Shown: piece by piece, positions 21,173 to 56,395 of the stretch
Position numbering within the stretch: position 1 is the first letter of the stretch
How the letters are laid out: every line of letters begins with the position of its first letter
Sequence record: PQ818761.1
DNA from: Escherichia phage EcoM2
Length of the DNA stretch: 64,000 nt
Reading direction: 5' to 3' (one strand)
Program-made: the position numbers and the translations under genes
The notes under the pieces: model-generated
What the model was told of the DNA's origin: nothing
Database searches by the model: none
The model's input: only the letters and a program-made list of their open reading frames with translations

Positions 21173-21658
21173 ATGAACTACATGGAGATTCGACCATTTG
21201 ATACAGCTAATGGTGAAGGGGTTCGTGTAAGCCTCTTCGTAGCTGGTTGTAAACATCACTGTGAAGGCTGCTTTAACAGGGAGTCTTGGAAGTTTAATGC
21301 TGGTAAGGTATTTACTTATGCAAACCTCTACGGAATCATCCAGCTAATGGGTGATAATGCTGTCAGTGGTTTGTCAATACTTGGTGGAGAACCTCTGGAT
21401 GATAGAAATATTCAAGAGGTTACAGACATATGCAAACGTGTTAAAACTGTTTACCCAGAGAAGACTATATGGCTCTGGACAGGTTTTCAACTGCACGAAA
21501 AAATCCACTTAGATGTGATGAAATATGTTGACGTGGTGATTGATGGTAAGTATGATGCTTCTAAACCAACGAATAAACCATATCGTGGTTCAGGCAACCA
21601 AAACTTGTGGAGAAAAGAATATGGCTGGCAAGGTGACTGTCAATGGAGAGCAGAATGA
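21173..21658 (+). CDS. nrdG: anaerobic RNR activating protein (radical SAM)
   Basis: 161 aa with CKHHCEGC (CxxxCxxC) radical-SAM cluster motif near the N-terminus. Confidence 0.8.
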   Translation: MNYMEIRPFDTANGEGVRVSLFVAGCKHHCEGCFNRESWKFNAGKVFTYANLYGIIQLMGDNAVSGLSILGGEPLDDRNIQEVTDICKRVKTVYPEKTIWLWTGFQLHEKIHLDVMKYVDVVIDGKYDASKPTNKPYRGSGNQNLWRKEYGWQGDCQWRAE

Positions 21659-23194: not shown

Positions 23195-24076
23195 ATGAAA
23201 ACATCTATCCGTGTTACAGTTCATTCACCAACTAAAGGAACTCATGAAGAAGAGTTTAACATCACCCAATTTCCTTCTGGTGAGATTGGTGGACACTTTT
23301 CGCCAGAGTTTGTTGATTTTACTGCTTATGCAGCATCATCTATCAACAATGTGATTATGATTGTAAAAGGTTATGATAAAGACACATTGTTTGCTGTGGC
23401 ACTTGCTAAAGAAGCAATTGATAATTTAGTACCTCATAAGTTTGCTATGAAGACCATTATCTTTTACTATTTGCCAAATGCACGTTATGACCGTCACATG
23501 TTTAAAGGTGATGCAGCAGCTTTGAAAGTGTTTGCACAACAGGTTAATGCAATGGGTTTTGATGCAGTCTGTGCAGTTGACTCTCACAGTTATGTACCAG
23601 ATAACCTGTTTAACTGCTTCCAGAGTATCCCCCAAAAGGAGATTGCAGTCCACTATGCGAATGACCCTCTGGTTGATTACTTAGTAGCCCCAGATGCAGG
23701 TGCTTCTAAGAAGATTGCAGAGACTGCTAAAGAGGTGGATAAACCATACATCACAATGTCTAAAGTGCGTAACCTTAAGACTGGTGAAATTACTGGTATG
23801 CGAATCCTTGATGATGTTGATTTGACCGATAAAACTGTTATGATTCTCGATGATATCTGTGATGGCGGTCGAACCTTCATAGAAGCAGCTAAACATCTTC
23901 GTGAAGCAGGTGCAAAACGTGTGGAACTCTATGTAACACATGGTATCTTCTCTAAAGGTGTTGAAAACCTTCTTGACAATGGTATTGACCACATCTACAC
24001 TACAAACTCTTTAGGGGAAGCTAAAGACCGTGGATTAACACATTATGGTCAAGTTACTGTAGCAAACCTTGATTAA
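23195..24076 (+). CDS. ribose-phosphate pyrophosphokinase-like phosphoribosyltransferase
   Basis: PRPP-binding motif VMILDDICDGGRTF; N-terminal FPSGEIGG resembles the Prs FxDGE region; 293 aa. Confidence 0.65.
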   Translation: MKTSIRVTVHSPTKGTHEEEFNITQFPSGEIGGHFSPEFVDFTAYAASSINNVIMIVKGYDKDTLFAVALAKEAIDNLVPHKFAMKTIIFYYLPNARYDRHMFKGDAAALKVFAQQVNAMGFDAVCAVDSHSYVPDNLFNCFQSIPQKEIAVHYANDPLVDYLVAPDAGASKKIAETAKEVDKPYITMSKVRNLKTGEITGMRILDDVDLTDKTVMILDDICDGGRTFIEAAKHLREAGAKRVELYVTHGIFSKGVENLLDNGIDHIYTTNSLGEAKDRGLTHYGQVTVANLD

Positions 24077-24086
24077 AAACTTTATA

Positions 24087-24108
24087 GGGGGCTTTTAAGC
24101 CCCATTTT
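24087..24108 (+). terminator. putative terminator
   Basis: GGGGGCTTTTAAGCCCC hairpin followed by ATTTT. Confidence 0.5.
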
Positions 24109-24123
24109 GAGAGAGATTAAAAG

Positions 24124-25905
24124 ATGACTAAATCACTTTATGCAGTACCAGCAGGTTTAAACGCAGATGCTTACAAATCTGGTCACATTTATCAGTACCC
24201 TAGTGCAACAGAGTACTTGATGTTTAACCTGACACCACGTAGTGATAAATGGTTTAACAGTCCTTTGGCAATTGACGGTGTAGTGGCTTTTGGTATTCAG
24301 CGTTTTGTTAAAGATTACTTGATAGACCACTGGAACGCCACCTTCTTTGAACGTGATAAAAAAGAAGCAATTGATGAAATCTTAGAAGTCATGAATGGTG
24401 TTCTGGGTAAAGATGCTATTGGTCGAGAGCATTGGGAAGCACTTCATGATTTGGGTTATCTACCAGTTGAAGTATACGCTGTAGAAGAAGGCACAGTTGT
24501 ACCTATGCGTGTGCCAATGATTGTCTTCCAGAATACTGTTTCAGGTTTCCATTGGGTAGCGGGGTATCTGGAAGATGCTTTCTCTGCTGAGATTTGGAAG
24601 GCTTGTACCATTGCAACTATTGCATTGCACTACAAACGTATCTGTAAGAAGTGGGCTGACCTTACTTGTGACAACGACTTGCATTTACCTTATCAGTGCC
24701 ATGACTTTGCTATGCGTGGTATGTCCGGCTTTACTGATGACGCATTTAACGCTGTAGGCCACTTAACCAGCTTTAAAGGAACTGATAGCTTCCCTGCTGT
24801 ATATACAGCTAAACGCATCTACGGTCAGTCCTACCCAATCTCTGATATTGGTAGCTCTGTACCCGCCACTGAACACTCTGTAATGTGTGCAAACATTGCT
24901 TGGGAAGGTGGTAATGAGTTGATTGAAGAAGAAAGACGCTTCAAAGGTGAGTTACAAACCTTCCGTCGCTTCTTAACAGAAACTTACCCAACTGGTATTG
25001 CAAGTGTTGTTTCAGACACTTATAATTTCTGGAGAACTGTATCAGTAATACTACCAGAACTCCGTAAAGAGATTATGGAACGTGATGGCAAACTGGTAAT
25101 TCGTCCTGACTCTGGAGACCCTGTACATATTGTCACAGGTTATAAAGCAATTCACTTAGAGTGTGCTAAAAAGGCTTATTACGAACACCTAAGCAAGCTG
25201 GAAGCCAGCGACACAATGTTGAATACTGTTCTGAACATGAAGCTTGAAAACATCAACTATGGTATTGCTGGATGGCTACTGTCAGAAGGCTACGAAATGG
25301 TTGTTGACAGAGAAGACTTTGAAGTTGCTGATACAGTGATGTTGAAAAATGCTTATATGGTTGGTTCTGCAAACGTTGTAACACGTCCTGTAGCAGAGAT
25401 TGATGGGGCTATTAAGACACTGTATAACATCTTTGGAGGGACTATCAACTCTAAAGGTTTTAAGGTACTGGATGAGCACATTGGCCTTATCTATGGTGAC
25501 TCTATCACGTTGGAACGTGCAAACGAAATCCTGAAGCGTTTGTATGAAATGGGTTTTGCAAGCTCTAACGTAGTGTTTGGTGTAGGTTCTTACACTTACC
25601 AGTACATGACTCGTGACACCTTTGCATTTGCTGTCAAAGCAACTCTTGCAAGCATTGGTGGTAAAGAGATTATGCTTGCAAAAGACCCTAAAACAGATAG
25701 TGGTGTTAAGAAGTCTGCTTTTGGTGGTGTAGCACCTATGTGGGATGGCGATAAGCTGAAAGCTGTAGATGGCTATGGATTCCAGAGCTTTGCAGATGTG
25801 CTTGAACATCCAGCTTGTGCTTTACGTTTAGTCTTTAGTGACTCTGAGCAGTTCGGTTACACAACTCTTGGTGATATTCGAAATAATATTGACAAGCAGC
25901 TTTAA
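24124..25905 (+). CDS. nicotinamide phosphoribosyltransferase
   Basis: ADAYKSGHIYQYP, LPVEVYAVEEGTVVP, HDFAMRGM and FKGTDS follow the NAMPT motif pattern (DSYK..H..QYP, LP..I.AV.EG, HDFG.RG, FKGTDT) as I recall it from the human enzyme. Confidence 0.8.
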   Translation: MTKSLYAVPAGLNADAYKSGHIYQYPSATEYLMFNLTPRSDKWFNSPLAIDGVVAFGIQRFVKDYLIDHWNATFFERDKKEAIDEILEVMNGVLGKDAIGREHWEALHDLGYLPVEVYAVEEGTVVPMRVPMIVFQNTVSGFHWVAGYLEDAFSAEIWKACTIATIALHYKRICKKWADLTCDNDLHLPYQCHDFAMRGMSGFTDDAFNAVGHLTSFKGTDSFPAVYTAKRIYGQSYPISDIGSSVPATEHSVMCANIAWEGGNELIEEERRFKGELQTFRRFLTETYPTGIASVVSDTYNFWRTVSVILPELRKEIMERDGKLVIRPDSGDPVHIVTGYKAIHLECAKKAYYEHLSKLEASDTMLNTVLNMKLENINYGIAGWLLSEGYEMVVDREDFEVADTVMLKNAYMVGSANVVTRPVAEIDGAIKTLYNIFGGTINSKGFKVLDEHIGLIYGDSITLERANEILKRLYEMGFASSNVVFGVGSYTYQYMTRDTFAFAVKATLASIGGKEIMLAKDPKTDSGVKKSAFGGVAPMWDGDKLKAVDGYGFQSFADVLEHPACALRLVFSDSEQFGYTTLGDIRNNIDKQL

Positions 25906-30136: not shown

Positions 30137-30685
30137 ATGAAGAAATTGATTCTAAGTTTGTGCTTAATGTTTACAGCACACTTATCTTATGCAGTTGACT
30201 GCCCAGAGCTATCAATTAGCCAAAAAGTAAACATGTTAAAAGCTTACCAGTATGGTGAGAATAATATGGGTAAAGGTTGGGGTATTACTCTAGCTGCTAT
30301 AGCCTTACAAGAGTCAGAGTTAGGTCTGAAGGTAGAGAATAAAAAGACACATGATTATGGTATTTTCCAGAATCACTTGAAGACTGTTGTAAAGCGTAAC
30401 AAAATTAGTCCTAATGTGGCTAAAAAGAAACTCTTAAGAGACTTTGATTATGCTGCGAAGGAAACTCACAAAGAACTTGAGTTTTGGACAAAGGTGCATG
30501 GCCAGCCAAAGTCAAAGAAGACTTTACAAAAAGTTTTAGCATCATATAATGCTGGGTATTCGTACAAAATCCCTAAAGCTAAGAAATATTCTCAAGATGT
30601 CTATAACAACATGAAAGTTATTGCTCAATGTGAATTTGCAACAAACATTTCTAAGGTAAATCATGAAAAAATTAAGAAAGTCTGA
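30137..30685 (+). CDS. secreted lytic transglycosylase-like protein (candidate endolysin)
   Basis: N-terminal signal peptide MKKLILSLCLMFTAHLSYA; SLT-family motifs ALQESELG, YGIFQ and SYNAGYS. Confidence 0.6.
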   Translation: MKKLILSLCLMFTAHLSYAVDCPELSISQKVNMLKAYQYGENNMGKGWGITLAAIALQESELGLKVENKKTHDYGIFQNHLKTVVKRNKISPNVAKKKLLRDFDYAAKETHKELEFWTKVHGQPKSKKTLQKVLASYNAGYSYKIPKAKKYSQDVYNNMKVIAQCEFATNISKVNHEKIKKV

Positions 30686-31358
30686 TGAAGTACTGTGTCA
30701 TGCTTATGACTTACATCCTCATGAGTTAGGTCTTGATTCCTGTGTATGGACTCCAGAACAGTGTAGGGATTTTGAAGACACCGCAAGAGAAGTTGTATGT
30801 TCACTCGAAGAGTTTCACACATCAGAGACAATTGTGAATGTTGTAGATAAAGAGACTGGACAAGCTATAGGTGTAAGGCGTGACAGCTTAGTCATAGTCA
30901 ATAAAGACCTTGTAGAAAAAGGTAACCTTATCTTAGCAGACATTGATGGTGTTCTTACAAATTTTAATCACGAAGATTGCTCAACGGAATTGATTGATGG
31001 GTCATTTTCACAGTACACTAATTTGCTTGACTCTGTAAGAGCAAAACCAACGTATGTTTTCAATATTATTGATGCAATTGCTAATCATGCCGCCATTGGA
31101 CTCTTGACAGCGAGAGGTGAATCTCAGAGAATACCTACTGAGATGTTTTTAAGGCATTACATAGAGCATGATTACATACTTTTTATGCGTGGTTTTGGGA
31201 CTAACTCTATAAGTGCAGAAAGTTTGAAAGTGAGGATGATTCAGTCTTGCATTCTGCCTTACTTTAATATAGTATGTTTTATAGAAGATACAGAGAAGAA
31301 TGTGCAGAAGGTGAACAGAATCCTTCCACACATTAAAACCATGTTAGTTAAACATTGA
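30663..31358 (+). CDS. hypothetical protein
   Basis: 231 aa ORF. Confidence 0.45.
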   Translation: MKKLRKSDEVLCHAYDLHPHELGLDSCVWTPEQCRDFEDTAREVVCSLEEFHTSETIVNVVDKETGQAIGVRRDSLVIVNKDLVEKGNLILADIDGVLTNFNHEDCSTELIDGSFSQYTNLLDSVRAKPTYVFNIIDAIANHAAIGLLTARGESQRIPTEMFLRHYIEHDYILFMRGFGTNSISAESLKVRMIQSCILPYFNIVCFIEDTEKNVQKVNRILPHIKTMLVKH

Positions 31359-32973: not shown

Positions 32974-33289
32974 CGGAAGAGACTTTGTAGCCGTTTACTA
33001 TGAGAAAGATAAAGAAGTTGGTGTAGCACAAGTATCTTATGGTAATGGTAAGTGGTTGTATGGGACAATCGCAGTAGTCGGAACAAGAAGTGATACAAAA
33101 ACTTTTAAAGACTGTGTTGACCTTCTTGAAGAATCCATCCATAATCATTGGTGTCTGATATGGATGACTGACAACGAAGTGATAGAACGCTTCAAAAAGA
33201 TTGGTATCAACATTGATAGCATTGAACATGTTGATTTATATGAGCTAACTGAGAAGGTAAACTATGAAAGTAATACTAGCCAGAGATAA
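32963..33289 (+). CDS. hypothetical protein
   Basis: ORF-track ORF 32924..33289 trimmed to ATG 32963 to limit overlap. Confidence 0.35.
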   Translation: MQINGRDFVAVYYEKDKEVGVAQVSYGNGKWLYGTIAVVGTRSDTKTFKDCVDLLEESIHNHWCLIWMTDNEVIERFKKIGINIDSIEHVDLYELTEKVNYESNTSQR

Positions 33290-33491
33290 AAAGACACGGA
33301 AACTTATCAGGTCAGCGGTGTTCATTGGACGAAATGAGGTCATACCATTTACAGCAAATGATGTGATAGCTTACCGGAAGAACTTAGTATTCACTGACTG
33401 TTTACGTGGCTTCATCTCTGAACCATTAGAACACTTTAAAAGCCGTTGTGGTAAAGGAATCATCATTCAAGAGGCAATTATTCATGGCTGA
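33264..33491 (+). CDS. hypothetical protein
   Basis: 75 aa ORF. Confidence 0.35.
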   Translation: MKVILARDKKTRKLIRSAVFIGRNEVIPFTANDVIAYRKNLVFTDCLRGFISEPLEHFKSRCGKGIIIQEAIIHG

Positions 33492-33684
33492 CTTCTGCAA
33501 AGACTGTTCTATAGAAATGTTTGGACGTGATACAGGTGACTTAAAAGGTCTTATCACTGAAGATGACTTTAAAGCTGGCTATGCAATGCCAGTAATCTGT
33601 GAAGGTTGCGGGTGTATCTGGGTAGACCACGAAGGACAACGTGTAAAACCTTCAGAAGATAAAGAGTCTTGGGAGAGATGTTAA
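33484..33684 (+). CDS. hypothetical Cys-rich small protein
   Basis: ORF-track ORF 33448..33684 trimmed to ATG 33484; CKDCS...CEGCGC cysteine motifs. Confidence 0.4.
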   Translation: MADFCKDCSIEMFGRDTGDLKGLITEDDFKAGYAMPVICEGCGCIWVDHEGQRVKPSEDKESWERC

Positions 33685-34464
33685 ATGGGTATTGTAAAAG
33701 TTGTGAAAGGTAACTTACTGGCTGCCTTCAAAAACACAGATATCGAGTTAATTGCTCATGGTTGCAACTGTCGTAACCTCATGGGTGCTGGAATCGCTCA
33801 AAAAATTGCTAAGATTTTCCCAAAAGCTGAAGAAGCTGACAGGAAATTCCATAAGAAGTTTGGCTACAATGCTCACGATATAGGATACCAGATGATTGGT
33901 GAGGTGTCACATGCTCGAACAGAGTATGGTTACATTTTTAACCTATATACACAGTTGGATGTTGGAAAGTGTGCATCATACCGATACTTAGTGGAGTCAC
34001 TAGAAAAACTCCGTAAGTTTTGCTGGATGCACAACATTCGTAAGATTGGTTTACCCATGATTGGGGCAGGTATCGGTGGGTTAGACGCACAAGCCGTGAA
34101 AAGCCTCATTAATAGCATTATGTACAACGTTGATGTGTACCTATACGTCTATGATGAAGCAATGGCAACTGTAGTTACCCCTAAGTATGCCACCTCAGCA
34201 CCACAATTCTATGATGGTGTTGTTCTCAGTGACGGTAAGTCTAACCATGTTACCCTCTATCAACTTGTTGAAGGTAAGGTAGAGGTTAGTTACCCTCTGG
34301 TTAGTGAGATGGGTATGTGTAACAGTGAAATGTTCTCAGTTGACCCGTTTGGTAGATACGAAGGGGTATTCTTTGATAACTACCCAGCAGCATACATCTA
34401 CACAACAAATCAGGATGAAGTTCACTACTTGCTGTATTCTAAAAAGTTCAAATTCATAAGCTGA
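33685..34464 (+). CDS. macro-domain (ADP-ribose binding/processing) protein
   Basis: N-terminal region ELIAHGCNCRNLMGAGIAQKIAK fits the macro-domain N...G-x-G-(V/I)-A signature; about 100 aa C-terminal extension of unknown function. Confidence 0.6.
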   Translation: MGIVKVVKGNLLAAFKNTDIELIAHGCNCRNLMGAGIAQKIAKIFPKAEEADRKFHKKFGYNAHDIGYQMIGEVSHARTEYGYIFNLYTQLDVGKCASYRYLVESLEKLRKFCWMHNIRKIGLPMIGAGIGGLDAQAVKSLINSIMYNVDVYLYVYDEAMATVVTPKYATSAPQFYDGVVLSDGKSNHVTLYQLVEGKVEVSYPLVSEMGMCNSEMFSVDPFGRYEGVFFDNYPAAYIYTTNQDEVHYLLYSKKFKFIS

Positions 34465-34708
34465 TTAGCACTTCACATTATCTACAAATCATCCAAGAAG
34501 GCTGCCTAACCAATTGAAAAATTTAAGGTAAGGCGGCCTTTTTCATTTCCAATTTGTGCAGGTATCTGTAGAGGTCTGCACAAATACCTCAAAAAATCTC
34601 ACCTCCAGATAGAAAAATCATTTTCAAAACGTGCAGACCCCGCTCAGGTCGGGCAAGAAAAATCATTTTAGAATTGTGCAGGTAGGATTTTATAGAGAGC
34701 CAGACCAG

Positions 34709-34739
34709 CCCCTCTCCCCCTCTTACTCCCCCTCTCCCC
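34709..34739 (-). other. G-quadruplex-forming G-run tract (C-rich on + strand)
   Basis: + strand CCCC-TCT-CCCCC-TCTTACT-CCCCC-TCT-CCCC, i.e. four G-runs of at least 4 on the - strand. Confidence 0.5.
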
Positions 34740-34860
34740 AAAAGTCAAGAGAAAAATTTGTAGCGGATTGAAAAATAATTCTTGATTTGTGTTCTGTTTT
34801 GTGGTAGTCGTGTGCGCCCGTTTCATTACAGTTTTGCTAAAAATATTTTTAAAATTTTTC

Positions 34861-34889
34861 TTGACTCTTTGAACGTGGTTATCTAGTAT
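34861..34889 (+). promoter_or_regulatory. sigma70-like promoter
   Basis: TTGACT - 17 nt - TAGTAT upstream of the first small-gene cassette. Confidence 0.5.
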
Positions 34890-34895
34890 TTGCAT

Positions 34896-34952
34896 CAACA
34901 GGGAGGGAATGTCCTTCCCCACTAAATAAAGTCCTAAACTGGAGATTCAAAA
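34896..34952 (+). repeat. type A hairpin/leader cassette, copy 1
   Basis: caacaGGGAGGGaatgTCCTTCCCC hairpin then conserved leader ACTAAATAAAGTCCTAAACTGGAGATTCAAAA before ATG. Confidence 0.7.
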
Positions 34953-35336
34953 ATGAAATACCGTGCACCTAAATTCATCAACAAAGACAACTTTCGCAAC
35001 GCACTGGAGAAGTCACTTGATGAAAGTTTTAAAGGTAACATTATCGTTGTTCACGCATTCAATTTTAAGTATGATGTAAACGGGAATAGAATCAACCATT
35101 ACACGGCAACCATGTTAGATGGTACACTTTCAAGTGAAAAAGCCGTACTAAATGCACTGGCAGGACGTGGAAAGGTATTAGTAAGATGTGATAAGAGACG
35201 TTATCAGGGCGGCGCATATGGTTATGATGATGCTGTTTACCATCTTGAAAATATGGGCTATCAAGTAGAAAAAGCTGGAGCATCACAAATCATCGGCAGC
35301 GATGGTTATGTAACTATCTTCAAAATTAACAAATAA
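34953..35336 (+). CDS. hypothetical protein (small-gene array 1)
   Basis: 127 aa ORF preceded by type A cassette with GGAG RBS. Confidence 0.55.
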   Translation: MKYRAPKFINKDNFRNALEKSLDESFKGNIIVVHAFNFKYDVNGNRINHYTATMLDGTLSSEKAVLNALAGRGKVLVRCDKRRYQGGAYGYDDAVYHLENMGYQVEKAGASQIIGSDGYVTIFKINK

Positions 35337-35337
35337 A

Positions 35338-35422
35338 GTGCTTTACAGGGGGCTTATAGTTCGATAAAGTAAGCCCCAGATAAAGAGCTTTACCACTAAA
35401 TCCTAAATTGGAGAACTTAAAA
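35338..35422 (+). repeat. type B hairpin/leader cassette, copy 1
   Basis: GTgCTTTACAgGGGGCTTAtag...TAAGCCCC hairpin, AGATAAAGAGCTTTACCACTAAATCCTAAAtTGGAGA leader. Confidence 0.7.
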
Positions 35423-35716
35423 ATGGCTATTATCAAAAACGTTGTAATTGCTGCAAAAACTCGTGATGACGCTCGCGTTATGGCTAAAAAGTTATGCGGG
35501 AAAGTGGTTGACAACGGAAAACAATCTGCTGTAAGGTGGGGCGTGAAGGTTGATAAACAGTTGAAGTTAAAAAATTCACCGATAAACCTTTTTACATGTG
35601 TAAACACTATCGGTAAGACAAATGTATACACGAAAAAGGCATACATTAGACGCGTAGCATTAACATCCCCCATTCGTACAATGAGAAGTTATGCAAAGCT
35701 GAAAATTAACAAATAA
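35423..35716 (+). CDS. hypothetical protein (small-gene array 2)
   Basis: ORF-track ORF 35408..35716 trimmed to the ATG positioned by the conserved leader (MAIIKN...). Confidence 0.5.
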   Translation: MAIIKNVVIAAKTRDDARVMAKKLCGKVVDNGKQSAVRWGVKVDKQLKLKNSPINLFTCVNTIGKTNVYTKKAYIRRVALTSPIRTMRSYAKLKINK

Positions 35717-35717
35717 A

Positions 35718-35801
35718 GTACTTTACAAGGGGCTTAAAAGCTGATACCTTAAGCCCCAGATAAAGAGCTTTACCACTAAATCCTAAACTGGAGATTCTAA
35801 A
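35718..35801 (+). repeat. type B hairpin/leader cassette, copy 2
   Basis: GTACTTTACAAGGGGCTTAAAAG...CTTAAGCCCC then conserved leader. Confidence 0.7.
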
Positions 35802-36314
35802 ATGAAAACTGTAGACGCTACCTTTGAAGTTGTAAAAGAAAAATTTTCCATCATCTACGAAGCGGTAAATTGCTACGAAGCAAGCCATAATCTCGTTAAT
35901 TGGGAGTTTACAAACGACCATCAAGGCGGTGTGACTGTTAAAAATCCTAACTGTCAGCATAATGATTTTAAATATGCAAACCCTTTGCATTACAGCCTTA
36001 AACAGCTTTCAAGTGACTATGCAAAACAAGGCCGGGAAAATCCATCAAAAGAGGCTTACGCAAGCTTACAAAAAGAACTAGAAAGAGATTTAGAGGCTTC
36101 AGAGTACAACCTTGCCGCGAAAGTTGTGGATGCAAACGGTAACACGGTTTTAGAAAGTTTTTATCTTGGTTATGCTTTCGATTGGTGCTATCGTGACGGC
36201 GATGATTTAGAGGATAGACTAAAAGAAGAGGTGAACAATTCAGACGCAGAAACTGAAGTATTAGAACGTTTGGAATCGTTGAAAGATTCAGTGATGAATA
36301 TCTTTAAGAACTAA
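35802..36314 (+). CDS. hypothetical protein (small-gene array 3)
   Basis: 170 aa ORF after type B cassette. Confidence 0.55.
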   Translation: MKTVDATFEVVKEKFSIIYEAVNCYEASHNLVNWEFTNDHQGGVTVKNPNCQHNDFKYANPLHYSLKQLSSDYAKQGRENPSKEAYASLQKELERDLEASEYNLAAKVVDANGNTVLESFYLGYAFDWCYRDGDDLEDRLKEEVNNSDAETEVLERLESLKDSVMNIFKN

Positions 36315-36315
36315 A

Positions 36316-36406
36316 TAGACCTCTTTACACGGGGTTATCAAGTTGGTATGATAGCCCCAGATAAAGAGATTTATCAAATAAAGCCCTTAAACTAGGAGAT
36401 TCTAAA
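36316..36406 (+). repeat. type B-variant hairpin/leader cassette
   Basis: CTCTTTACACGGGGTTATCAAG...GATAGCCCC then AGATAAAGA...CTAGGAGATTCTAAA. Confidence 0.6.
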
Positions 36407-36703
36407 ATGAAATTATCAAATCAAGTGCGTGAAAATTTGAGCAAATTACTCAACAAAATTGATTTTATCGAGACATCAAGGAATAGGCATGATGTTATGG
36501 AATGGTTACACGGCAAAATAAAAGGTCGTCGTGTAGTGATTTGCTTATGGAACAGTTGCAGGGAGTATAAAAAACCTGTATTACAAGTTAATATATACGA
36601 TAATACTTTTAAAAGTCCTGTAAAGTCTAAAAGCGATTTATTAGAATCCTATGAGATAACTGTAAATGGCAAAGTATCACGTAAAGAGGAAACACCATGT
36701 TAA
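36407..36703 (+). CDS. hypothetical protein (small-gene array 4)
   Basis: 98 aa ORF. Confidence 0.5.
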   Translation: MKLSNQVRENLSKLLNKIDFIETSRNRHDVMEWLHGKIKGRRVVICLWNSCREYKKPVLQVNIYDNTFKSPVKSKSDLLESYEITVNGKVSRKEETPC

Positions 36704-37029
36704 TGACTGGTATCACTGCAATCATTGCCATTTTCGCGCTATATAAGGCATATAAAGCCTATAATCTAGCAAGTAAGGCAATTACGCAGCAGGTTAGCAA
36801 TAACCTTGTAGAAAGCTTTCTAGGGCGTCTCAGTGATGAGCAAATAAAGCGGCTAGAGATGAGCTTCAGATATAAAGCGAAAACCTATCAGATAAGTGAC
36901 ATCTTTAAAGATGATTTTCAGTTAGTTGATGATTATAATTCTCTGATAAATGCTTTAAACATCAATGACTTGAAAGAATATCACGCTGTAATTGTTCAAG
37001 AATTGAGCAAACGAAAACAAATCTGTTGA
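36697..37029 (+). CDS. hypothetical membrane protein (small-gene array 5)
   Basis: 110 aa with N-terminal hydrophobic helix; overlaps upstream gene by 7 nt. Confidence 0.45.
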   Translation: MLMTGITAIIAIFALYKAYKAYNLASKAITQQVSNNLVESFLGRLSDEQIKRLEMSFRYKAKTYQISDIFKDDFQLVDDYNSLINALNINDLKEYHAVIVQELSKRKQIC

Positions 37030-37054
37030 CACTGGTTTTTAGATAGATTAAATT
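37026..37054 (+). promoter_or_regulatory. sigma70-like promoter
   Basis: TTGACA - 17 nt - TAAATT; 29-mer identical to the copy at 38078. Confidence 0.55.
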
Positions 37055-37060
37055 ACACAT

Positions 37061-37121
37061 CAACGGGGAGGGAATGACCTCCCCCCCCACTAAATAAAGT
37101 CCTAAACTGGAGATTCAAAAA
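37061..37121 (+). repeat. type A hairpin/leader cassette, copy 2
   Basis: caacGGGGAGGGaatgaCCTCCCC hairpin plus conserved leader. Confidence 0.7.
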
Positions 37122-37280
37122 ATGTTTTGTGCAGGTGATAAAGTTGTCTGGAATGATATAGATGACGGTTTATGTACGAAAGTTGTTGTTATCTTAGAAA
37201 TTGATTATATCACTGGTGTTGCAACTGTAGCAGATAATGATATAATCTTTGATGTCTTAATTAGTGAACTGTCAAAATAA
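37122..37280 (+). CDS. hypothetical small protein (small-gene array 6)
   Basis: 52 aa ORF (below ORF-track cutoff) starting exactly at the ATG positioned by the cassette leader. Confidence 0.4.
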   Translation: MFCAGDKVVWNDIDDGLCTKVVVILEIDYITGVATVADNDIIFDVLISELSK

Positions 37281-37305
37281 AGTCCTTAAACTAGGAGATT
37301 CAAAA

Positions 37306-37578
37306 ATGTACACTACTAACAACGGTCGCACCTTAAACGTAACCCTACGCCACTATGTGAACGGTGTAATGCACTTCGAGGATTTACAAGCTGAACAGCA
37401 CATTTTGGATTGGCAACTTGCAGGATTCCAAAAAACTGCTACCGGATACGGGAAAAAGATTCCAACTAGCTGGAAAGTATACTACGAAGGCCGTTTGCGT
37501 AGAATTTATCAAGATGTATGCGGCAATAGCGCATCAAGTTACATCATAGTAAAAGGCAAAAAGCTGCATTTAGCATAA
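37306..37578 (+). CDS. hypothetical protein (small-gene array 7)
   Basis: ORF-track ORF 37264..37578 trimmed to ATG 37306, which follows a copy of the leader (AAGTCCTTAAACTAGGAGATTCAAAA) without hairpin. Confidence 0.5.
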   Translation: MYTTNNGRTLNVTLRHYVNGVMHFEDLQAEQHILDWQLAGFQKTATGYGKKIPTSWKVYYEGRLRRIYQDVCGNSASSYIIVKGKKLHLA

Positions 37579-37663
37579 AGTACTTTACAAGGGGCTTATA
37601 AGTCTGTACAGTAAGCCCCAGATAAAGAGCTTTACCACTAAATCCTAAATTGGAGATTCAAAA
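37579..37663 (+). repeat. type B hairpin/leader cassette, copy 3
   Basis: GTACTTTACAAGGGGCTTATAAG...GTAAGCCCC plus leader. Confidence 0.7.
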
Positions 37664-38068
37664 ATGGCTATTAATAATCGTGAGTTATCTATCTTAAAAG
37701 CACGTTTGACCGTTAACCGGATTAATGTTATCACATCAGCAGCACCGGATGAAACACTGCAAAACATTATTGGGAAGATTCAAAGTGTTATCTTAGACGT
37801 TGAAAGCGTAAAAAACTCATTGGCTGACGTTGCAGCCGGTATCACGCTAGACGGTGCACAACATGAGATGGCCGACATGTTAGGCAAATCAAAGGTAATG
37901 AATAAAGAATTAGACTTGAAAATGTTTCGATTTGCTGTTAAAGTGTGGCTATCCGTCGAGTATGACGCTAACTTTGCAATCGCTGACTTTTTCGCCACTT
38001 GGTTGCAGCGTAATTTGTCAAATCATGATTTTCGTAATATCTGTGATGCAATTTATGCAGAACTCTAA
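37664..38068 (+). CDS. hypothetical protein (small-gene array 8)
   Basis: 134 aa ORF. Confidence 0.55.
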   Translation: MAINNRELSILKARLTVNRINVITSAAPDETLQNIIGKIQSVILDVESVKNSLADVAAGITLDGAQHEMADMLGKSKVMNKELDLKMFRFAVKVWLSVEYDANFAIADFFATWLQRNLSNHDFRNICDAIYAEL

Positions 38069-38077
38069 AAAATTTTG

Positions 38078-38106
38078 TTGACACTGGTTTTTAGATAGAT
38101 TAAATT
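38078..38106 (+). promoter_or_regulatory. sigma70-like promoter
   Basis: TTGACA - 17 nt - TAAATT, identical to 37026 copy. Confidence 0.55.
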
Positions 38107-38112
38107 ACACAT

Positions 38113-38171
38113 CAACGGGGAGGGGATGACCTTCCCCACTAAATAAAGTCCTTAAACTAGGAGATTCTAAA
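38113..38171 (+). repeat. type A hairpin/leader cassette, copy 3
   Basis: caacGGGGAGGGgatgaCCTTCCCC plus leader. Confidence 0.7.
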
Positions 38172-38369
38172 ATGGCTATTATTAACGGCTTAACCATTGA
38201 AACAACACACATCAAAGATATCAAAGTTGGTGATGTAGTCCTTTCCCACGGCGTAGAAAAAACTGTCACTGTAAAGGATATCAAAGAGGATTCTTTCATG
38301 GGTAGAACTCTCTTCGGTGATTCTTATTGCTTAGGTTATCTTGCAGTTTTAAAAGTTGTCAAAAATTAA
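38172..38369 (+). CDS. hypothetical protein (small-gene array 9)
   Basis: 65 aa ORF. Confidence 0.45.
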   Translation: MAIINGLTIETTHIKDIKVGDVVLSHGVEKTVTVKDIKEDSFMGRTLFGDSYCLGYLAVLKVVKN

Positions 38370-38377
38370 GTAATAAA

Positions 38378-38461
38378 GTACTTTACAAGGGGCTTAAAAA
38401 GTTGGTATCTTAAGCCCCAGATAAAGAGCTTTACACAGTCCTTAAACTAGGAGATTAAAGA
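38378..38461 (+). repeat. type B hairpin/leader cassette, copy 4
   Basis: GTACTTTACAAGGGGCTTAAAAAG...CTTAAGCCCC plus leader. Confidence 0.7.
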
Positions 38462-38710
38462 ATGATGAATTATTTAAACATTCCCGACACTTGCAGACTG
38501 TTAACGCAACCAGAAAATTTAGGTAAGGCTTACCTATACCATATGCCAAATAATACGGCAAAAACTTATAGTTACACTGTTAACCGATTCACGGCATACG
38601 CTGCAAAAAACGGTTACAAGGTTGTTACTCAAAAAGTAACACTGTTTACAACTGTTGAGGAACTCCCCACGGTTGCAGTTAAACTGATTTTTTCAAAGAA
38701 AACTAAATAG
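38462..38710 (+). CDS. hypothetical protein (small-gene array 10)
   Basis: 82 aa ORF. Confidence 0.5.
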   Translation: MMNYLNIPDTCRLLTQPENLGKAYLYHMPNNTAKTYSYTVNRFTAYAAKNGYKVVTQKVTLFTTVEELPTVAVKLIFSKKTK

Positions 38711-38795
38711 ATTTCTTTACACGGGGTTATCAAGCTGATAAGATAGCCCCAGATAAAGAAATTTATCAAATAAATCCTAAACTGGAGATTCAAAA
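38711..38795 (+). repeat. type B-variant hairpin/leader cassette, copy 2
   Basis: TTTCTTTACACGGGGTTATCAAG...GATAGCCCC, near-identical to 36316 copy. Confidence 0.6.
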
Positions 38796-39338
38796 ATGAA
38801 ATGTTTTCACGGTACTACTCAAGAAAACTTTATCAACCTGATTAATAACGGTGATAAACCATCAGGCGCATGGAATTGTTCTGATATGGATGGGAATTTT
38901 TACGTTTACCCAGAGAATAAAATCTATGGCGACGATGAGGAAGAAATAATCTTTGAAGGTATCCAGCAAGCTCTGGGCAATGCCACTATCACCGCAGCTT
39001 TTCAGATGAAAACTCAAAACATTGTTATCTTGGAACTTGAGATTCCAGAAGATGAGCTAAACGATGATTATTCTTGTGATAATATGTCGAGCGTGGCAAG
39101 TTTTACAGAATATTTCGATTTAAATTGGATTAAAAAGGTTTACATCACTGAATTTAATGCTATGTATTCGCCTTTTTGTCTTCCTTCACTGGATAACCCA
39201 AATATGAATTATCTTGATGAGACATTAGAACTACTTGCTAAAAGTGTTCAACAATCGGACAGTATTCAGGTTTTTTGTGACATCATGGACACACTAACGG
39301 AAAACATCGCAGAAGAGGATTTAAAGAGCTTTTTCTAA
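38796..39338 (+). CDS. hypothetical acidic protein (small-gene array 11)
   Basis: 180 aa ORF. Confidence 0.55.
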   Translation: MKCFHGTTQENFINLINNGDKPSGAWNCSDMDGNFYVYPENKIYGDDEEEIIFEGIQQALGNATITAAFQMKTQNIVILELEIPEDELNDDYSCDNMSSVASFTEYFDLNWIKKVYITEFNAMYSPFCLPSLDNPNMNYLDETLELLAKSVQQSDSIQVFCDIMDTLTENIAEEDLKSFF

Positions 39339-39404
39339 AACCCTATGCAATCACATTATAAACACTATTCAGCCCCTTGTAGGGGCTTTTAAGAGGCTTA
39401 AATC

Positions 39405-39638
39405 ATGCTTACAACCGTTTATCTTATCCTTTCTATATGTAATGGTCATTCATGCGATTTTAAAGGGCTTGAAGAGTTTACAGGAAGTAAAGAAAATGCT
39501 ATTCAAGTTTGCCAGATAGCGAGACAAGACTATCCCGCAAGTGATGATATTCAGTGTTACTTTAAGACAGAAGATGAAGACGGTATCTATTTTGACAGTG
39601 TAGATGGTCAGTATGAAATTATCATTGAAAAAGACTAG
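39405..39638 (+). CDS. hypothetical protein (small-gene array 12)
   Basis: 77 aa ORF preceded by a CAGCCCCTTGTAGGGGCTTTT hairpin. Confidence 0.45.
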   Translation: MLTTVYLILSICNGHSCDFKGLEEFTGSKENAIQVCQIARQDYPASDDIQCYFKTEDEDGIYFDSVDGQYEIIIEKD

Positions 39639-39670
39639 ACAAGCCTGATAAAAATCTGTAAATTGTCAAT

Positions 39671-39729
39671 CAACGGGGAGGGAATGACCTTCCCCACTAA
39701 ATAAAGTCCTTAAACTAGGAGATTCAAAA
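39671..39729 (+). repeat. type A hairpin/leader cassette, copy 4
   Basis: caacGGGGAGGGaatgaCCTTCCCC plus leader. Confidence 0.7.
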
Positions 39730-40071
39730 ATGGCTTATGTAACCGTAATTACCGATAAAGCTGGCGCATCTTGGTCAACTCAAGTAAGCGATAAGATGTC
39801 ACCTATGCAGTGCCTAAAATACTTTGAACAGTGGAATAAAGGCGAGGACACAAGCCCCTTTCAAGTGATGCAGATTATCCATGTAGACAACGAAGGGAAT
39901 AAAACTGTTTTGAACAGTGAGTACTATGCAACCCGATTTGAAACGAGAAGTAAAACAATGAAACTTTTACGTGAATCCGGTTATTCCCATATCGCCGCGT
40001 TAATCTGGGATGACCTGCTAAAAAACCAACGTATCAGCTATGTAAAACCTGAAAAAATATTCATCAGTTAA
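39730..40071 (+). CDS. hypothetical protein (small-gene array 13)
   Basis: 113 aa ORF. Confidence 0.5.
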   Translation: MAYVTVITDKAGASWSTQVSDKMSPMQCLKYFEQWNKGEDTSPFQVMQIIHVDNEGNKTVLNSEYYATRFETRSKTMKLLRESGYSHIAALIWDDLLKNQRISYVKPEKIFIS

Positions 40072-40235
40072 TCAATAACTTACAAAAAACTTTCAAAAAA
40101 GTATTGACAAAGCCCCTTGACATTGGTAGATTTGTTCGAGGGGGTTTATCTAAAAGGGATTAACTTAAAAGATTCTTTATAGATAAGCTCAAAAAATTAC
40201 TTGCAATCAACTATCAAAACAAGTAAATTACTAAT

Positions 40236-40291
40236 CAACGGGAAGGCAATAACCTCCCCACTAAATAAAGTCCTAAACTGGAGATTCTAAA
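40236..40291 (+). repeat. type A hairpin/leader cassette, copy 5
   Basis: caacGGGAAGGcaataaCCTCCCC plus leader. Confidence 0.65.
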
Positions 40292-40822
40292 ATGAACAAA
40301 TTTCAAGCTATCAACTTCATTCGTTCAAATGCTGTAATGTCAAAGCCTGTTAAAGACACCTATGAATTTCGTTGTAATGGTGTACATTTTGCAACAATCA
40401 CCAAATCAGAAAACGGGGCTTATTACGTCCATCGTCGTAATGTTTCTACTGTTGTAGTTTCTCACTTTATGCAAGCTGTCGCGGAACTTCTCCCGATGTT
40501 TTTAGGTCTTTACTTAGATGAGTGTAAAAACGTTCACAATCACGTTAAAAACCTTTTAAACAGTTATAAAATGGCTTATGAACGTTCTATCAAGTCCTTA
40601 AACAAGTTTTACAACGCACCTGAAAATACTGTGTCAATGGCCTATGCTGTAAATGGTGATGCGGTGAGTCTCTTTGAAGTGGAAGAAATCAAGCTGCATG
40701 ATTTACGCACTAGCGGTTACTCTAAGACTCTCGGTGAAGGTTTAACGTTCAATATCAAGAACTTAGAAAAAACTTTAAAAGATATTGAAAAAGATATTGA
40801 CGAGACAATCAAAAGTCTGTAA
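40292..40822 (+). CDS. hypothetical protein (small-gene array 14)
   Basis: 176 aa ORF. Confidence 0.55.
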   Translation: MNKFQAINFIRSNAVMSKPVKDTYEFRCNGVHFATITKSENGAYYVHRRNVSTVVVSHFMQAVAELLPMFLGLYLDECKNVHNHVKNLLNSYKMAYERSIKSLNKFYNAPENTVSMAYAVNGDAVSLFEVEEIKLHDLRTSGYSKTLGEGLTFNIKNLEKTLKDIEKDIDETIKSL

Positions 40823-40831
40823 ATTGTCAAT

Positions 40832-40888
40832 CAACGGGGAGGGAATGACCTTCCCCACTAAGTAAAATCCTAAACTGGAGTTATCAAG
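40832..40888 (+). repeat. type A hairpin/leader cassette, copy 6
   Basis: caacGGGGAGGGaatgaCCTTCCCC plus divergent leader. Confidence 0.65.
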
Positions 40889-41152
40889 ATGGAAAACGTA
40901 GAATTAACCACACTTTTACAAATTGCAACCGACAAAGAAGACGTAGCATTATTTCACCGTATCGAAAGCGATTTATTCAATGGTGAAATCATCAAAGAAT
41001 CTTATGAAGTTGTCGGATTCAAAGATGGTAAAGCATTTGGCTTTTTTGACCTCGACAAAGGCAACGCGGTTACAAAATACGATGTTTTATCTTGTGAGAT
41101 TCTGACAAAATACAACGAAAAAAGGCTTGCAACATACGCCAACATGCAGTAA
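40889..41152 (+). CDS. hypothetical protein (small-gene array 15)
   Basis: 87 aa ORF. Confidence 0.5.
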   Translation: MENVELTTLLQIATDKEDVALFHRIESDLFNGEIIKESYEVVGFKDGKAFGFFDLDKGNAVTKYDVLSCEILTKYNEKRLATYANMQ

Positions 41153-41161
41153 ATTATCAAT

Positions 41162-41218
41162 CAACGGGAGGCGATAACCTCCCCACTAAATAAAACCCTT
41201 AAACTAGGAGATTCAAAA
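41162..41218 (+). repeat. type A hairpin/leader cassette, copy 7
   Basis: caacGGGAGGcgataaCCTCCCC plus leader. Confidence 0.65.
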
Positions 41219-41467
41219 ATGGCAACTATCCGCGCAACTGTCAATGCTTATGGCTGTTATACTCTGGACGTTAAATTTGATATTGGTGGAACTGATGAGT
41301 GTTTTTCATTAGTGAAGACAGTTATCAAGCAAGTTATCCCAGATTATAACCCTACTGATGACTTCTGGAAAGACGCTGTAAAAGAGGCATTAAACGACGA
41401 GCATCACTATCATTACTGGGGTGACTTGATTATCTCACTGTACTACAATAAACAAGGTTACAACTAA
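41219..41467 (+). CDS. hypothetical protein (small-gene array 16)
   Basis: 82 aa ORF. Confidence 0.5.
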   Translation: MATIRATVNAYGCYTLDVKFDIGGTDECFSLVKTVIKQVIPDYNPTDDFWKDAVKEALNDEHHYHYWGDLIISLYYNKQGYN

Positions 41468-41505
41468 TCGACGCAACGGGGCTAAATAGCCCCAGATACC
41501 TTCAC

Positions 41506-41528
41506 AGCCCCATTTAAGGGGCTTTTTT
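41506..41528 (+). terminator. rho-independent terminator
   Basis: AGCCCC-atttaa-GGGGCT hairpin followed by TTTTTT; ends the rightward small-gene array. Confidence 0.6.
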
Positions 41529-41529
41529 A

Positions 41530-43128
41530 CGTCTATGTAATAGCCCCTATACAATCCTTTCCCTTTCCTTTCCAGAATCTTACTAGACCTTAAAAGCAAT
41601 AACTCTATAGCTTACTCTATAACCCCTTATCAAATCAACTTAAATATAAGCCCATAACCCGAAAGGGAAGGGCAACCGTTTAAACGCTCTATAAAGCTCT
41701 ATAACAGCCTTATCAACCTAACTTAAGGGATTGCATTACCTCACCCTTAAAAGCCCTTTATAAAGCTTCTCAGAGCCTTAAAAGAATCTTATAAGGGTGT
41801 AAGCTTTATTATCTCGTTAGTTCCTTGTGAATATCTAGAAAGGGCTATGAGATAGGAATCTATCGAATCCTATTGTTAGTGTCTTAAAAGTGTGTTATAG
41901 GGGCTATGAAGTTACTTCAAAGTTGCTTAAAAGTTACGTAAATGCTAGCCCCCTTAACATTTTCTTAACAATTTCTTAACAAACCCTACATAGTTATGCT
42001 TTTAAGGCACTTGTTAGCAACTTGTTAGCCCCTTGTTAAATCTCTGTTAAAACCACGTAAAAGCCTTGTAAGAGTCTTTGACATAGCCTTAAAAGCTCCT
42101 GTAAAGCTCTATAAAAAGGTGTCTGTACAGTTGGGGTGTAATTACTAGGAAGAGACTTAAAAGAGCTTACAAAGAGCTATAGAGAGCTTTTAAGAGGTAT
42201 GTTTAAGGAATCACTAAGAAAGGAAAGGGAATGATAAGAAAAGGGATAGTGACCATGTTAATAGCTTGTTAAAAAGATTAGACACTTGTTAGGAACTTGT
42301 TAATTATCTTAACAAAATAACTCTTAAAAATTAACTTGTTAGCTCTTGTTAGTCACTGTTAAGACTCTGTAAAGACCATGTATCGACTGTTAAGAACTTG
42401 TTACAGCCTTGTTAGTTCTGTTAAGAGTCTGTTAAGACCTCTGAAGAGATGTTAAGAGCTTGAGAGAGTTGTTAAGAGATTGTTAAGGATATTTTAAAAT
42501 TCTGCAAAGGGGATGTTACAGGGATGTTAAGGGCTACCAAGCAGATATACATCCTAGACAGATATTTTTCAGTTCCTTCAAAAACCCTAAAAAATGACTT
42601 GATAGCCCTATTTTATAAAAATTTTAAAAATCTGAATAATTACCTAGACAGTCTTTCAAAAATACAGGTAGAAACAGGCTTATAAGATACCTTGTTAGTA
42701 CCGTGTTAGACCTTGTGAGATAAGGTCTGTAAAGATATTCCTGTTAAGTTTGTTAAAACAGTCTATATAGAGGCTTAGTAATACCTAGTGAACACCTATA
42801 GAGGGTCATCTATGTGACATAGAGATTAAGAGGTGTATAGGAGCTTCTAAGAATGTGTAGAGAGATGGTTAAGGTGATTGTATAGGTTGTTAAGAATGCT
42901 TGTTAGAAGAGTGTTTAGAAGGGCTATACAGATGGGCTATTAAGACCACTAGATAGATACTAAGATACTATATAGTACTATATAACTGTATATAGAGAGT
43001 AAGCTTAAGAAGGGTGTTAAGAAGGATAGATATTTTATTCACATATGATGGTGACCCAGAGGTTGGGACAACCGATAAAATTTTATAAAAATTAAAAAGC
43101 CCCCAATTAAGGAGGCTCTTAAGATATT
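41530..43128. repeat. ORF-free repeat-rich region with iteron-like short direct repeats
   Basis: About 1.6 kb with no ORF of 60 aa or more on either strand; more than 20 copies of TGTTAAG / CTTGTTAG, locally at about 11-bp spacing (42330-42540), plus CTTAAAAG and GCTCTATAA repeats. Confidence 0.6.
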
Positions 43129-55641: not shown

Positions 55642-55716
55642 GCATCCATAGTTTAAACGGGAAAATTACAGTCTTCCAAACTGAGGTTGAGGGTTCGATT
55701 CCCTCTGGATGCTCCA
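55642..55716 (+). tRNA. tRNA-Gly (anticodon UCC)
   Basis: Acceptor GCATCCA/TGGATGC, anticodon loop CTTCCAA, T-arm GAGGGTTCGATTCCCTC, CCA. Confidence 0.75.
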
Positions 55717-55730
55717 AATTAAGGTGTGAT

Positions 55731-56144
55731 ATGAAAATATGCAGTACTTGCAGAATACCAAAAGATGAAAGCTTATTCCATAAGAATAAGAACAAAAAAG
55801 ATGGTCTTCAAAGTCAATGCAAAGACTGTGCAAGACTTCGTGATGCAAAGAGTTATCAAGCAAATGATAAAAGGAAAGAGGCTATTAAAAGCACTCGTAA
55901 CGTCAAGAGAGAGTATAACAAGGCTCTAGCTAGAAGGTACAAAGCTTTATGCAAATGTCATATATGTGGTGAGAAAGAACCAGTTGCACTGGATTTACAC
56001 CATACAGACCCTTCCCAGAAAGATTTGAATCCTGCATCACTTTATTCATACTCCACAAAAAGATTAAAAGATGAAATCAGAAAGTGCATTGTCTTGTGCG
56101 CTAACTGCCACAGAAAAGTACATGCTGGTATCATAAAAGTTTAA
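55731..56144 (+). CDS. HNH endonuclease (homing-endonuclease-like) inside tRNA cluster
   Basis: 137 aa with Cys pairs and LHHTDPSQKDLNPAS...CANCHRKVH, an HNH zinc-finger core. Confidence 0.6.
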   Translation: MKICSTCRIPKDESLFHKNKNKKDGLQSQCKDCARLRDAKSYQANDKRKEAIKSTRNVKREYNKALARRYKALCKCHICGEKEPVALDLHHTDPSQKDLNPASLYSYSTKRLKDEIRKCIVLCANCHRKVHAGIIKV

Positions 56145-56145
56145 T

Positions 56146-56222: not shown

Positions 56223-56329
56223 ATTCAGAGGTCAAGTGAAAGACCGCTTTGAGTCAACTGAAGACCGTAACAAATTCCACGGAGTTGAGTTAGCGGCACA
56301 ACTCCAGACCTCTTCTCACACTCGCTTAG

Positions 56330-56394: not shown

Positions 56395-56395
56395 T

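Follow-up and report, generated by a model that had tools for sequence, protein, structure and literature searches.

What does a virulent myovirus of enterobacteria gain from a macrodomain? The question is raised by a stretch of 64 000 nucleotides from Escherichia phage EcoM2 (PQ818761.1; 'the window' below means the whole of this stretch), in which a gene at 33685–34464 on the + strand encodes a macrodomain joined to a C-terminal domain (CTD). Counter-defence roles of phage macrodomains date only from 2025–2026 and are those of AdfM, which acts against the DarTG2 defence, and of Adpp, which acts against the RES-domain defence aRES. A preliminary description of the window, made from the letters alone, had proposed that the protein either reverses ADP-ribosylation-based host defence or processes NAD-derived signals, and had left the choice between the two unmade. 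Its core idea is supported by homology, because members of the same family do these two things (T4 Tk.4, named AdfM, counters DarTG2 and Adpp of Vibrio phage Gary acts on ADP-ribose-1''-phosphate, ADPR-1''-phosphate), and the signatures described below lean towards AdfM. The reading that we favour, at a probability of roughly 45%, is that the gene encodes an AdfM-type counter-defence de-ADP-ribosylase directed against DarT2 and fitted with an accessory domain.

Three characterized phage proteins provide the frame for this reading. HIDEN-SEQ on T4 under DarTG2 gave Tk.4 as its single hit, the phage was sensitized by a clean knockout of tk.4 and the gene was named adfM (bioRxiv 10.1101/2025.11.20.689424). 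For PhiKZ gp104, also called AdfM, it was shown biochemically that the protein strips thymidine-linked ADP-ribose from DNA oligonucleotides, and its putative catalytic residues N23 and K78 are the equivalents of N22 and K80 of DarG (PMC13309987). The name AdfM has therefore been used in two independent papers for distinct lineages, PhiKZ gp104 being DarG-like with Lys and T4 Tk.4 being of the PHROG 335 type with Gln. Adpp of phage Gary is a macrodomain protein that converts ADPR-1''-phosphate, the product of aRES, to ADP-ribose, and this conversion enables reconstitution of NAD+ by NARP1; anti-defence is lost when any of three genes of the Gary operon is inactivated, an H24A mutant of Adpp has been engineered, and the criterion for Adpp is a macrodomain gene no more than two genes away from those for the NARP1 enzymes Adps and Namat (bioRxiv 10.64898/2026.01.28.702374).

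The open reading frame (ORF) lies exactly where the preliminary description had placed a gene. It is complete (259 amino acids, aa), its ATG abuts the stop codon of the preceding ORF, and the N-terminal MGIVK is kept in all homologues. The protein matches PHROG 335 ('phosphatase') over residues 1–258 (E 5.3e-85, profile positions 53–317 of 422), and homologues with E values from 1e-167 to 1e-31 have the identical two-part architecture. Judged by sequence, the source phage is a Felixounavirus (Felix O1-like): a 2.5-kb query around the macrodomain gene was matched by 241 phage records, nearly all from Felix O1-like phages of Escherichia, Salmonella, Shigella and Citrobacter. Older annotations of the family read 'phosphatase / Poa1p-like', and in VpaE1_ev035 the orthologue, again found downstream of rIIA and rIIB, carries the label 'Macro domain, Poa1p_like family'. 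In Escherichia phage ECML-1 (OL631478.1, 904–1683) an intact 259-aa ORF with macrodomain and CTD is left unannotated in the deposited record. The divergent carriers that were looked up all have the order Namat, rIIA, rIIB, further genes, a HAD/PNKP-like gene, small genes and then the macrodomain–CTD gene, and because this gene order is common to all of them they are Ounavirinae-like phages.

The signature by which the macrodomain had been recognized is present, with AHGCNC at residues 24–29 and MGAGIA at residues 33–38, and profile and sequence searches agree with it. Pfam PF01661 matches residues 25–140 with 30 bits (gathering cutoff 22, E 5.6e-7), and the sequence matches in the PDB are TARG1/OARD1, the DarG macrodomains 5m31 and 5m3i, and yeast Poa1p. 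Structure prediction, suggested earlier as a check, gave a full-length AlphaFold2 (AF2) model (21 homologues; mean predicted local distance difference test score, pLDDT, 86; predicted template modelling score, pTM, 0.86) in which the N-terminal part has the three-layer alpha/beta/alpha macro fold and the CTD is folded as well. DarG profiles match residues 4–163 (PADLOC E 1.4e-16, NCBIfam E 1.4e-15), the NCBIfam score (NF048014, 57.4 bits) lying far under the equivalog cutoff of 250 and covering only profile positions 2–153 of 338. The motifs of the predicted ADP-ribose site (N28, MGAGIA and GAGIGG) are invariant in the 21 homologues, as is the YTQ motif; N28 aligns with DarG N22 and PhiKZ N23, and H25 aligns with H24 of Gary Adpp. 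The column of the catalytic Lys in DarG and TARG1 is occupied by Q90, which is invariant in the family, and T4 Tk.4 as well as all Adpp-type proteins likewise have Gln at this place. On these motifs the macrodomain is, by prediction, an ADP-ribose-processing enzyme, and an active site with Gln for Lys that is common to T4 AdfM and Gary Adpp raises the mechanistic question of how such enzymes hydrolyse their substrates. In the Kolesnikvirus orthologue gp101 (Erwinia phage vB_EamM-M7, 2498–3280) Gln replaces the conserved His25, the counterpart of Gary Adpp H24.

Which of the characterized proteins the macrodomain resembles most was approached by pairwise similarity, by a tree and by motif length. 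The window protein has 33% identity to T4 Tk.4 (E 7e-23, T4 residues 2–155, Tk.4 terminating where the CTD starts) and 28% identity to Gary Adpp (E 2e-12), and its relationship to PhiKZ AdfM is barely detectable (E 0.002). Between T4 Tk.4 and Gary Adpp the identity is 35% (E 4e-22), and of the proteins in the test set it is the NARP1-associated macrodomain of phiAbaA1 that comes closest to T4 Tk.4. The score against a DarG hidden Markov model (HMM) fails as a discriminator between AdfM and Adpp: PhiKZ AdfM reaches 133 bits, the window protein 58.9, the homologue from PAK_P1 52.4, Gary Adpp 44.6 and T4 AdfM 36, the last four standing at comparable, moderate distances from DarG. In a neighbour-joining tree of 20 macrodomains with bootstrap, those of the Ounavirinae type form a single clade (100%) to which T4 Tk.4 is weakly supported as sister (59%), and PhiKZ AdfM clusters with DarG (100%). 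The second character, which gives a cleaner signal, is the length of the loop from the catalytic column (after the Y[GT]Q motif) to the next conserved Tyr, an empirical signature derived in this analysis, for which the Poa1p sequence was checked against PDB 6LFQ. The loop has eight residues in all seven Ounavirinae-type proteins, T4 AdfM, PhiKZ AdfM, both DarG proteins and TARG1, and 12–15 residues in nine out of nine NARP1-associated macrodomains including Gary Adpp, with 13 in yeast Poa1p. The glycine loop of the window protein (GAGIGGLD) is likewise nearer to GAGNGGL of DarG than to G[AC]GL[AG]GGDW of the Adpp group. Tree, loop length and glycine loop thus lean towards a de-ADP-ribosylase of the AdfM kind and away from Adpp.

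The gene has also been exchanged as a cassette. In a comparison of the window with Felixounavirus UAB_Phi87, protein identity is 75–100% for the 16 products of the flanking genes, at least 93% for 14 of these, but 40.8% for the macrodomain protein (41% by BLASTP). At the DNA level identity is about 95% as far as ATGGGTATTGTAAAA; directly past it, at codon 6, it drops to about 60% or less, and it recovers about 150 nt beyond the stop codon. Of 2755 matching phage records only 12 have an allele with over 90% identity to that of the window (protein coverage is at least 80% in 256 records), and the window-type allele is present in phages of Salmonella and E. coli alike. Wholesale replacement of a single gene is typical of loci facing variable host factors and fits counter-defence without naming the target; the exchange of the cassette within a background of about 95% identity is as expected for a counter-defence locus. 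The gene lies in the early region downstream of rIIA/rIIB, with synteny kept in distant relatives.

The C-terminal part had been described as about 100 residues without a recognizable motif, and this was borne out. Pfam gave zero matches across 18 homologous CTD sequences, Foldseek against BFVD returned for the CTD only the family's own member from SUSP2 (E 0.013), the CTD fold has no match in the PDB or BFVD, and a CTD profile run against 1.84 billion representative proteins found only macrodomain-fused copies and two fragments (P0035 and P0038), its other matches (P0036 and P0043, for example) being repeat-protein noise. Because Pfam, BFVD and profile searches found no other relative, the CTD seems to occur only fused to the macrodomain, and it seems to be confined to the Ounavirinae-like phage lineage. 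According to the models it is a conserved folded domain and not a disordered tail, with a pLDDT of about 90 both in the full-length model and in a model of the CTD only; P173 and G178 are its sole invariant residues among the homologues. The tail of gp101 of Erwinia phage M7 (260 aa) is of similar size, and its C-terminal 100 or so residues are too diverged for alignment with the CTD profile, although it nonetheless shows a similar P-x-x-Y...DG start.

When distant homologues are compared, the CTD proves to change at about twice the rate of the macrodomain (identities of macrodomain versus CTD were 88% versus 64%, 92% versus 64% and 51% versus 21%), and its isoelectric point (pI) spans 4.9 to 10 among the homologues. 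Among six closely related type-A alleles dN/dS was 0.04–0.13 for the macrodomain and 0.03–0.26 for the CTD, with values of about 0.05–0.1 in summary, so that both are under strong purifying selection, and no ongoing positive selection was found in either domain of these alleles. As the CTD is held by purifying selection it must be considered functional, although probably not catalytic. Three candidate identities for it were rejected: it is not a fused neighbour gene of the T4 locus, the CTD HMM having no match to T4 tk.1, tk.2, tk.3, vs, vs.1, tk or regB; it is not an aRad1-like inhibitor of aRES (hhalign probability just 0.1%); and the pI range speaks against a conserved DNA binder or DNA mimic.

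The preliminary description had drawn attention to NAD+ salvage genes 8 kb upstream. These are present as a NARP1-type pair whose Pfam set is the same as that given for genes 79–80 of Bas63, itself a Felixounavirus, and from these families and the genus they correspond to Adps and Namat, the NARP1 enzymes defined in Bas63 (a phage that has been engineered by Cas13a selection). The pair is 90–97% identical in most of 255 phage records, and public records mostly label it as a ribose-phosphate pyrophosphokinase (PRPP-synthetase-like) and a nicotinamide phosphoribosyltransferase (Nampt-like). A direct operon link to the macrodomain gene was not upheld: both lie on the + strand, but 7.8 kb and about 12 genes, rIIA and rIIB included, are in between.

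If the AdfM-type reading is correct, the protein would be made early and its macrodomain would bind the ADP-ribose moiety and hydrolyse the bond at ribose C1''. We infer that the likeliest substrate is the ADP-ribose put by host DarT2 (of the DarTG2 defence) on thymidines of single-stranded phage DNA, the removal of which would allow replication to proceed. Catalysis would retain the Asn (N28) and the His (H25) and use Gln (Q90) for Lys, as in T4 AdfM, and because of this Gln the catalytic detail must differ from that of DarG and TARG1. The CTD would be a lineage-specific non-catalytic accessory module, probably for partner binding or targeting. A bolder version, which we regard as unlikely, would make the CTD a new protein fold that directly binds and neutralizes an immune protein of the host, the DarT2 toxin and the aRES NADase being examples. 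The phage protein would in that case have converged on a two-pronged, 'DarG-like' antitoxin, with erasure of the damage by the macrodomain and inhibition of the damaging enzyme by the CTD, and the two alleles (41% identical), which circulate in Felixounavirus genomes that are otherwise nearly identical, would differ in the targets that they recognize.

A number of observations weigh against an AdfM-type enzyme. The Lys that is catalytic in DarG (K80), TARG1 (K84) and PhiKZ AdfM (K78) is Gln in the window protein, and the position of TARG1 D125 is Gly. In the tree the placement of T4 Tk.4 as sister to the Ounavirinae-type clade has a bootstrap support of only 59%, the NARP1-associated PAK_P1 homologue (from a Pakpunavirus) is as close to the window protein as T4 Tk.4 is (35% identity, E 2e-24), and Adpp-type proteins score about equally with the window protein on the DarG HMM. 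No biochemistry has been reported for a Gln-type AdfM, the activity of T4 AdfM being known from genetics in a preprint (bioRxiv 10.1101/2025.11.20.689424), and we found no literature linking Felix O1-like phages or Bas63 to DarTG or macrodomains. The same spread of pI counts against a conserved DNA-binding or DNA-mimic surface on the CTD. Finally, the phage itself carries NARP1, alongside which an Adpp activity would make biological sense, and NARP1 and the macrodomain gene co-occur with kept synteny in all relatives checked.

This last point bears on the main rival explanation, which we consider unlikely, in which the protein is an Adpp-type phosphatase that works in trans with NARP1, turning the ADPR-1''-phosphate made by aRES into ADP-ribose from which Adps and Namat rebuild NAD+. 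The window protein shares a family with the proven Gary Adpp and with the NARP1-adjacent PAK_P1 protein (see the identities above), it keeps as H25 the His that was mutated in Gary Adpp, and its historical label is 'phosphatase / Poa1p-like'. NARP1 lies upstream on the same strand and co-occurs in kept order in divergent relatives, and NARP1 alone is insufficient against aRES, the aRES proteins tested having come from E. coli, Klebsiella and Enterobacter. The gene is, however, outside the NARP1 operon, being some 12 genes off and beyond rIIA/rIIB as compared with the published distance of two genes or fewer, and the protein is without the 12- to 15-residue loop that all nine NARP1-associated macrodomains and Poa1p possess. 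Moreover T4 Tk.4, its neighbour in the tree, comes from a phage without NARP1, and there is no obvious reason why a small-molecule phosphatase should carry an extra domain or undergo cassette replacement. The two activities might also reside in one enzyme, a promiscuous C1''-hydrolase that takes ADP-ribose off DNA (against DarT2) and dephosphorylates ADPR-1''-phosphate (against aRES, so feeding NARP1). Both reactions cut a substituent at ribose C1'', and TARG1 and viral macrodomains of this class act on several C1''-linked substrates. The similarity of T4 AdfM to Gary Adpp, from which the window protein is about equidistant, and the NARP1-associated phiAbaA1 macrodomain as nearest test-set relative of T4 Tk.4 are also in keeping with such an enzyme. 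We think it distinctly unlikely, as the two groups separate cleanly by loop length, which suggests specialization and not promiscuity.

Least probable of all, in our estimation, is a macrodomain that erases ADP-ribosylation of some other kind (on protein or RNA, as laid down by host ADP-ribosyltransferase toxins or mRNA-targeting systems) or that is a non-catalytic binder sequestering ADP-ribose-derived immune signals. The change from Lys to Gln would then represent a loss of the DarG-type chemistry; in favour of this reading are Q90, which stands in place of a Lys that is essential in DarG and TARG1, and the additional Gln for His25 in gp101 of Erwinia phage M7. The residues of the ADP-ribose site (N28, the glycine loops and YTQ) are, however, invariant in the family, Gary Adpp shares the Gln and yet is catalytically active, and both of the closest characterized relatives are hydrolases. 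The AdfM-type de-ADP-ribosylase is retained as the preferred reading, and the features on which these arguments draw are listed in Table 1.

Table 1. Coordinates of the features described, numbered from the first letter of the window.
Feature	Position	Strand	Basis or detail
NARP1-type gene pair: Adps-like (23195–24076) and Namat-like (24124–25905)	23195–25905	+	Pfam PF14572/PF00156 and PF04095/PF18127
Two-domain coding sequence (macrodomain + CTD; PHROG 335 'phosphatase')	33685–34464	+	ORF list, PHROG 335, homologues
Macrodomain, residues 1–162	33685–34170	+	Key residues H25, N28, MGAGIA loop 33–38, T89-Q90, P124-x-I-G-A-G-I-G-G loop
Interdomain linker, residues ~158–172	34157–34200	+	AF2: helix 158–164, then lower confidence; block 161–170 mean pLDDT 65
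CTD, residues ~173–259: six beta-strands and one C-terminal helix	34201–34461	+	Opens with P-x-x-[FY]-[DA]-G
Swapped allelic cassette	33700–34617		blastn breakpoints 33827 and 34618, per-gene protein identities, base-level alignment
Intrinsic terminator: hairpin, then UUUUUCAUUU	34495–34552	+	RNA fold −23.6 kcal/mol, z −4.7, 0/200 shuffles as stable

Directly downstream the preliminary description had noted an array of small genes. The array is there, beginning at 34953, with genes that fall in PHROGs of unknown function; a functional link with the macrodomain gene did not stand, as a terminator and about 490 nt lie between the two. The terminator hairpin and U-run begin about 30 nt past the stop codon of the macrodomain gene and, because terminator and non-coding gap intervene, this gene closes the early block of rIIA and rIIB and probably does not share a transcript with the array. 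The gap (34465–34952) has its first 150 nt within the swapped cassette. It contains, past the terminator, an inverted repeat (TTGTGCAG...CTGCACAA, 34554–34585), two 39-nt direct repeats (34598–34681), a C-rich tract (CCCCTCTCCCCCTCTTACTCCCCCTCTCCCC, about 34708–34740) and a promoter-like site (34861–34889). A search of 33000–43000 with Rfam gave one sub-threshold small RNA (sRNA) hit only and no family for the gap. Within the array (34953–41500, + strand) almost all small genes have in front of them a repeated intergenic cassette, of which there are two kinds: one (six copies) consists of the hairpin GGGGAGGGAATGACCTTCCCC and then ACTAAATAAAGTCCTAAACT(A)GGAGATTCAAAAATG, the other (four to five copies) of TTTACA...GGGGCTTA...TAAGCCCCAGATAAAGAGCTTTAC. 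Their appearance is that of a modular system of promoters, terminators and leaders serving early genes. In a divergent relative (ERZ1689379 contig, 14715–15056) the array after the macrodomain gene holds an Ocr-family (PF08684) anti-restriction gene, a hint that genes for counter-defence are present in the array; no Ocr-family match was found in the array of the window itself.

Other genes of the window were noted in passing. Between rIIB and the macrodomain gene, at a position kept in all divergent relatives, lies a gene (30663–31358, + strand) for a 231-aa protein that matches PHROG 3970 'polynucleotide kinase', is named PseT in UAB_Phi87 and gives a weak HAD_PNKP signal in relatives. A radical-SAM / 4Fe-4S protein is encoded at 21173–21658 on the + strand (PF13353, E 8e-43), and from its family it is a putative anaerobic ribonucleotide reductase activase. 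Finally, an array of 25 tRNA genes with small ORFs interspersed occupies 53033–58491 (+ strand).

Felix O1-like phages are widely used in biocontrol and typing of Salmonella and E. coli, and they carry a member of the AdfM/Adpp family as a positionally conserved early gene. What is new here, beyond the preliminary description, is the replacement of the catalytic Lys by Gln, a conserved and lineage-restricted folded CTD that makes this an architectural variant (a macrodomain with a structurally unmatched domain), and the swapping of the whole gene between near-identical genomes. If the loop-length signature holds, it would provide a cheap way of splitting the PHROG 335 'phosphatase' proteins into DarG/TARG1/AdfM-like and Poa1p/Adpp-like members. 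Bas63, the model phage for NARP1, would, if it carries the macrodomain gene, allow the competing hypotheses to be compared directly.

Set beside the known systems, the window protein is by its signatures most like T4 AdfM, with which it has in common the motifs HGCNC, MG[AS]G, NLYTQ and P-x-IGAGIG, the eight-residue loop and the Gln in the Lys column; both are encoded by virulent myoviruses of enterobacteria, in genes that are early or non-essential. T4 Tk.4 is, however, a single domain of 155 aa whereas the window protein has 259 aa with an extra CTD of about 95 residues, the neighbourhood of tk.4 is vs/tk whereas the window gene is downstream of rIIA/rIIB, and the anti-DarTG2 phenotype belongs to T4 only. 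With Adpp of Gary the protein shares the PHROG 335 phage macrodomain family and the conserved His, Asn and Gln, and NARP1 is encoded by the window phage too, but Adpp and Poa1p (PDB 6LFQ) have a loop of 12–15 residues and not eight, Adpp genes are at most two genes from Adps/Namat and not 7.8 kb away, and Adpp proteins are single-domain proteins of about 150–170 aa and not two-domain ones. DarG resembles the window protein in its profile subclass (E ~1e-15), its Asn (N22, equivalent to N28), its short loop and its GAG-x-GGL-like glycine loop, and both consist of a macrodomain and a C-terminal domain. The CTD of the window protein is nevertheless without a match to the DarT-binding half of the DarG profiles, and no DarT partner gene adjoins it, the scanned neighbours being small phage ORFs without a match to a DarT or ADP-ribosyltransferase family. 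PhiKZ AdfM groups with DarG on bootstrap and DarG HMM score alike (100% and 133 bits), whereas the window protein does not, and its likeness is to the Gln-type AdfM of T4.

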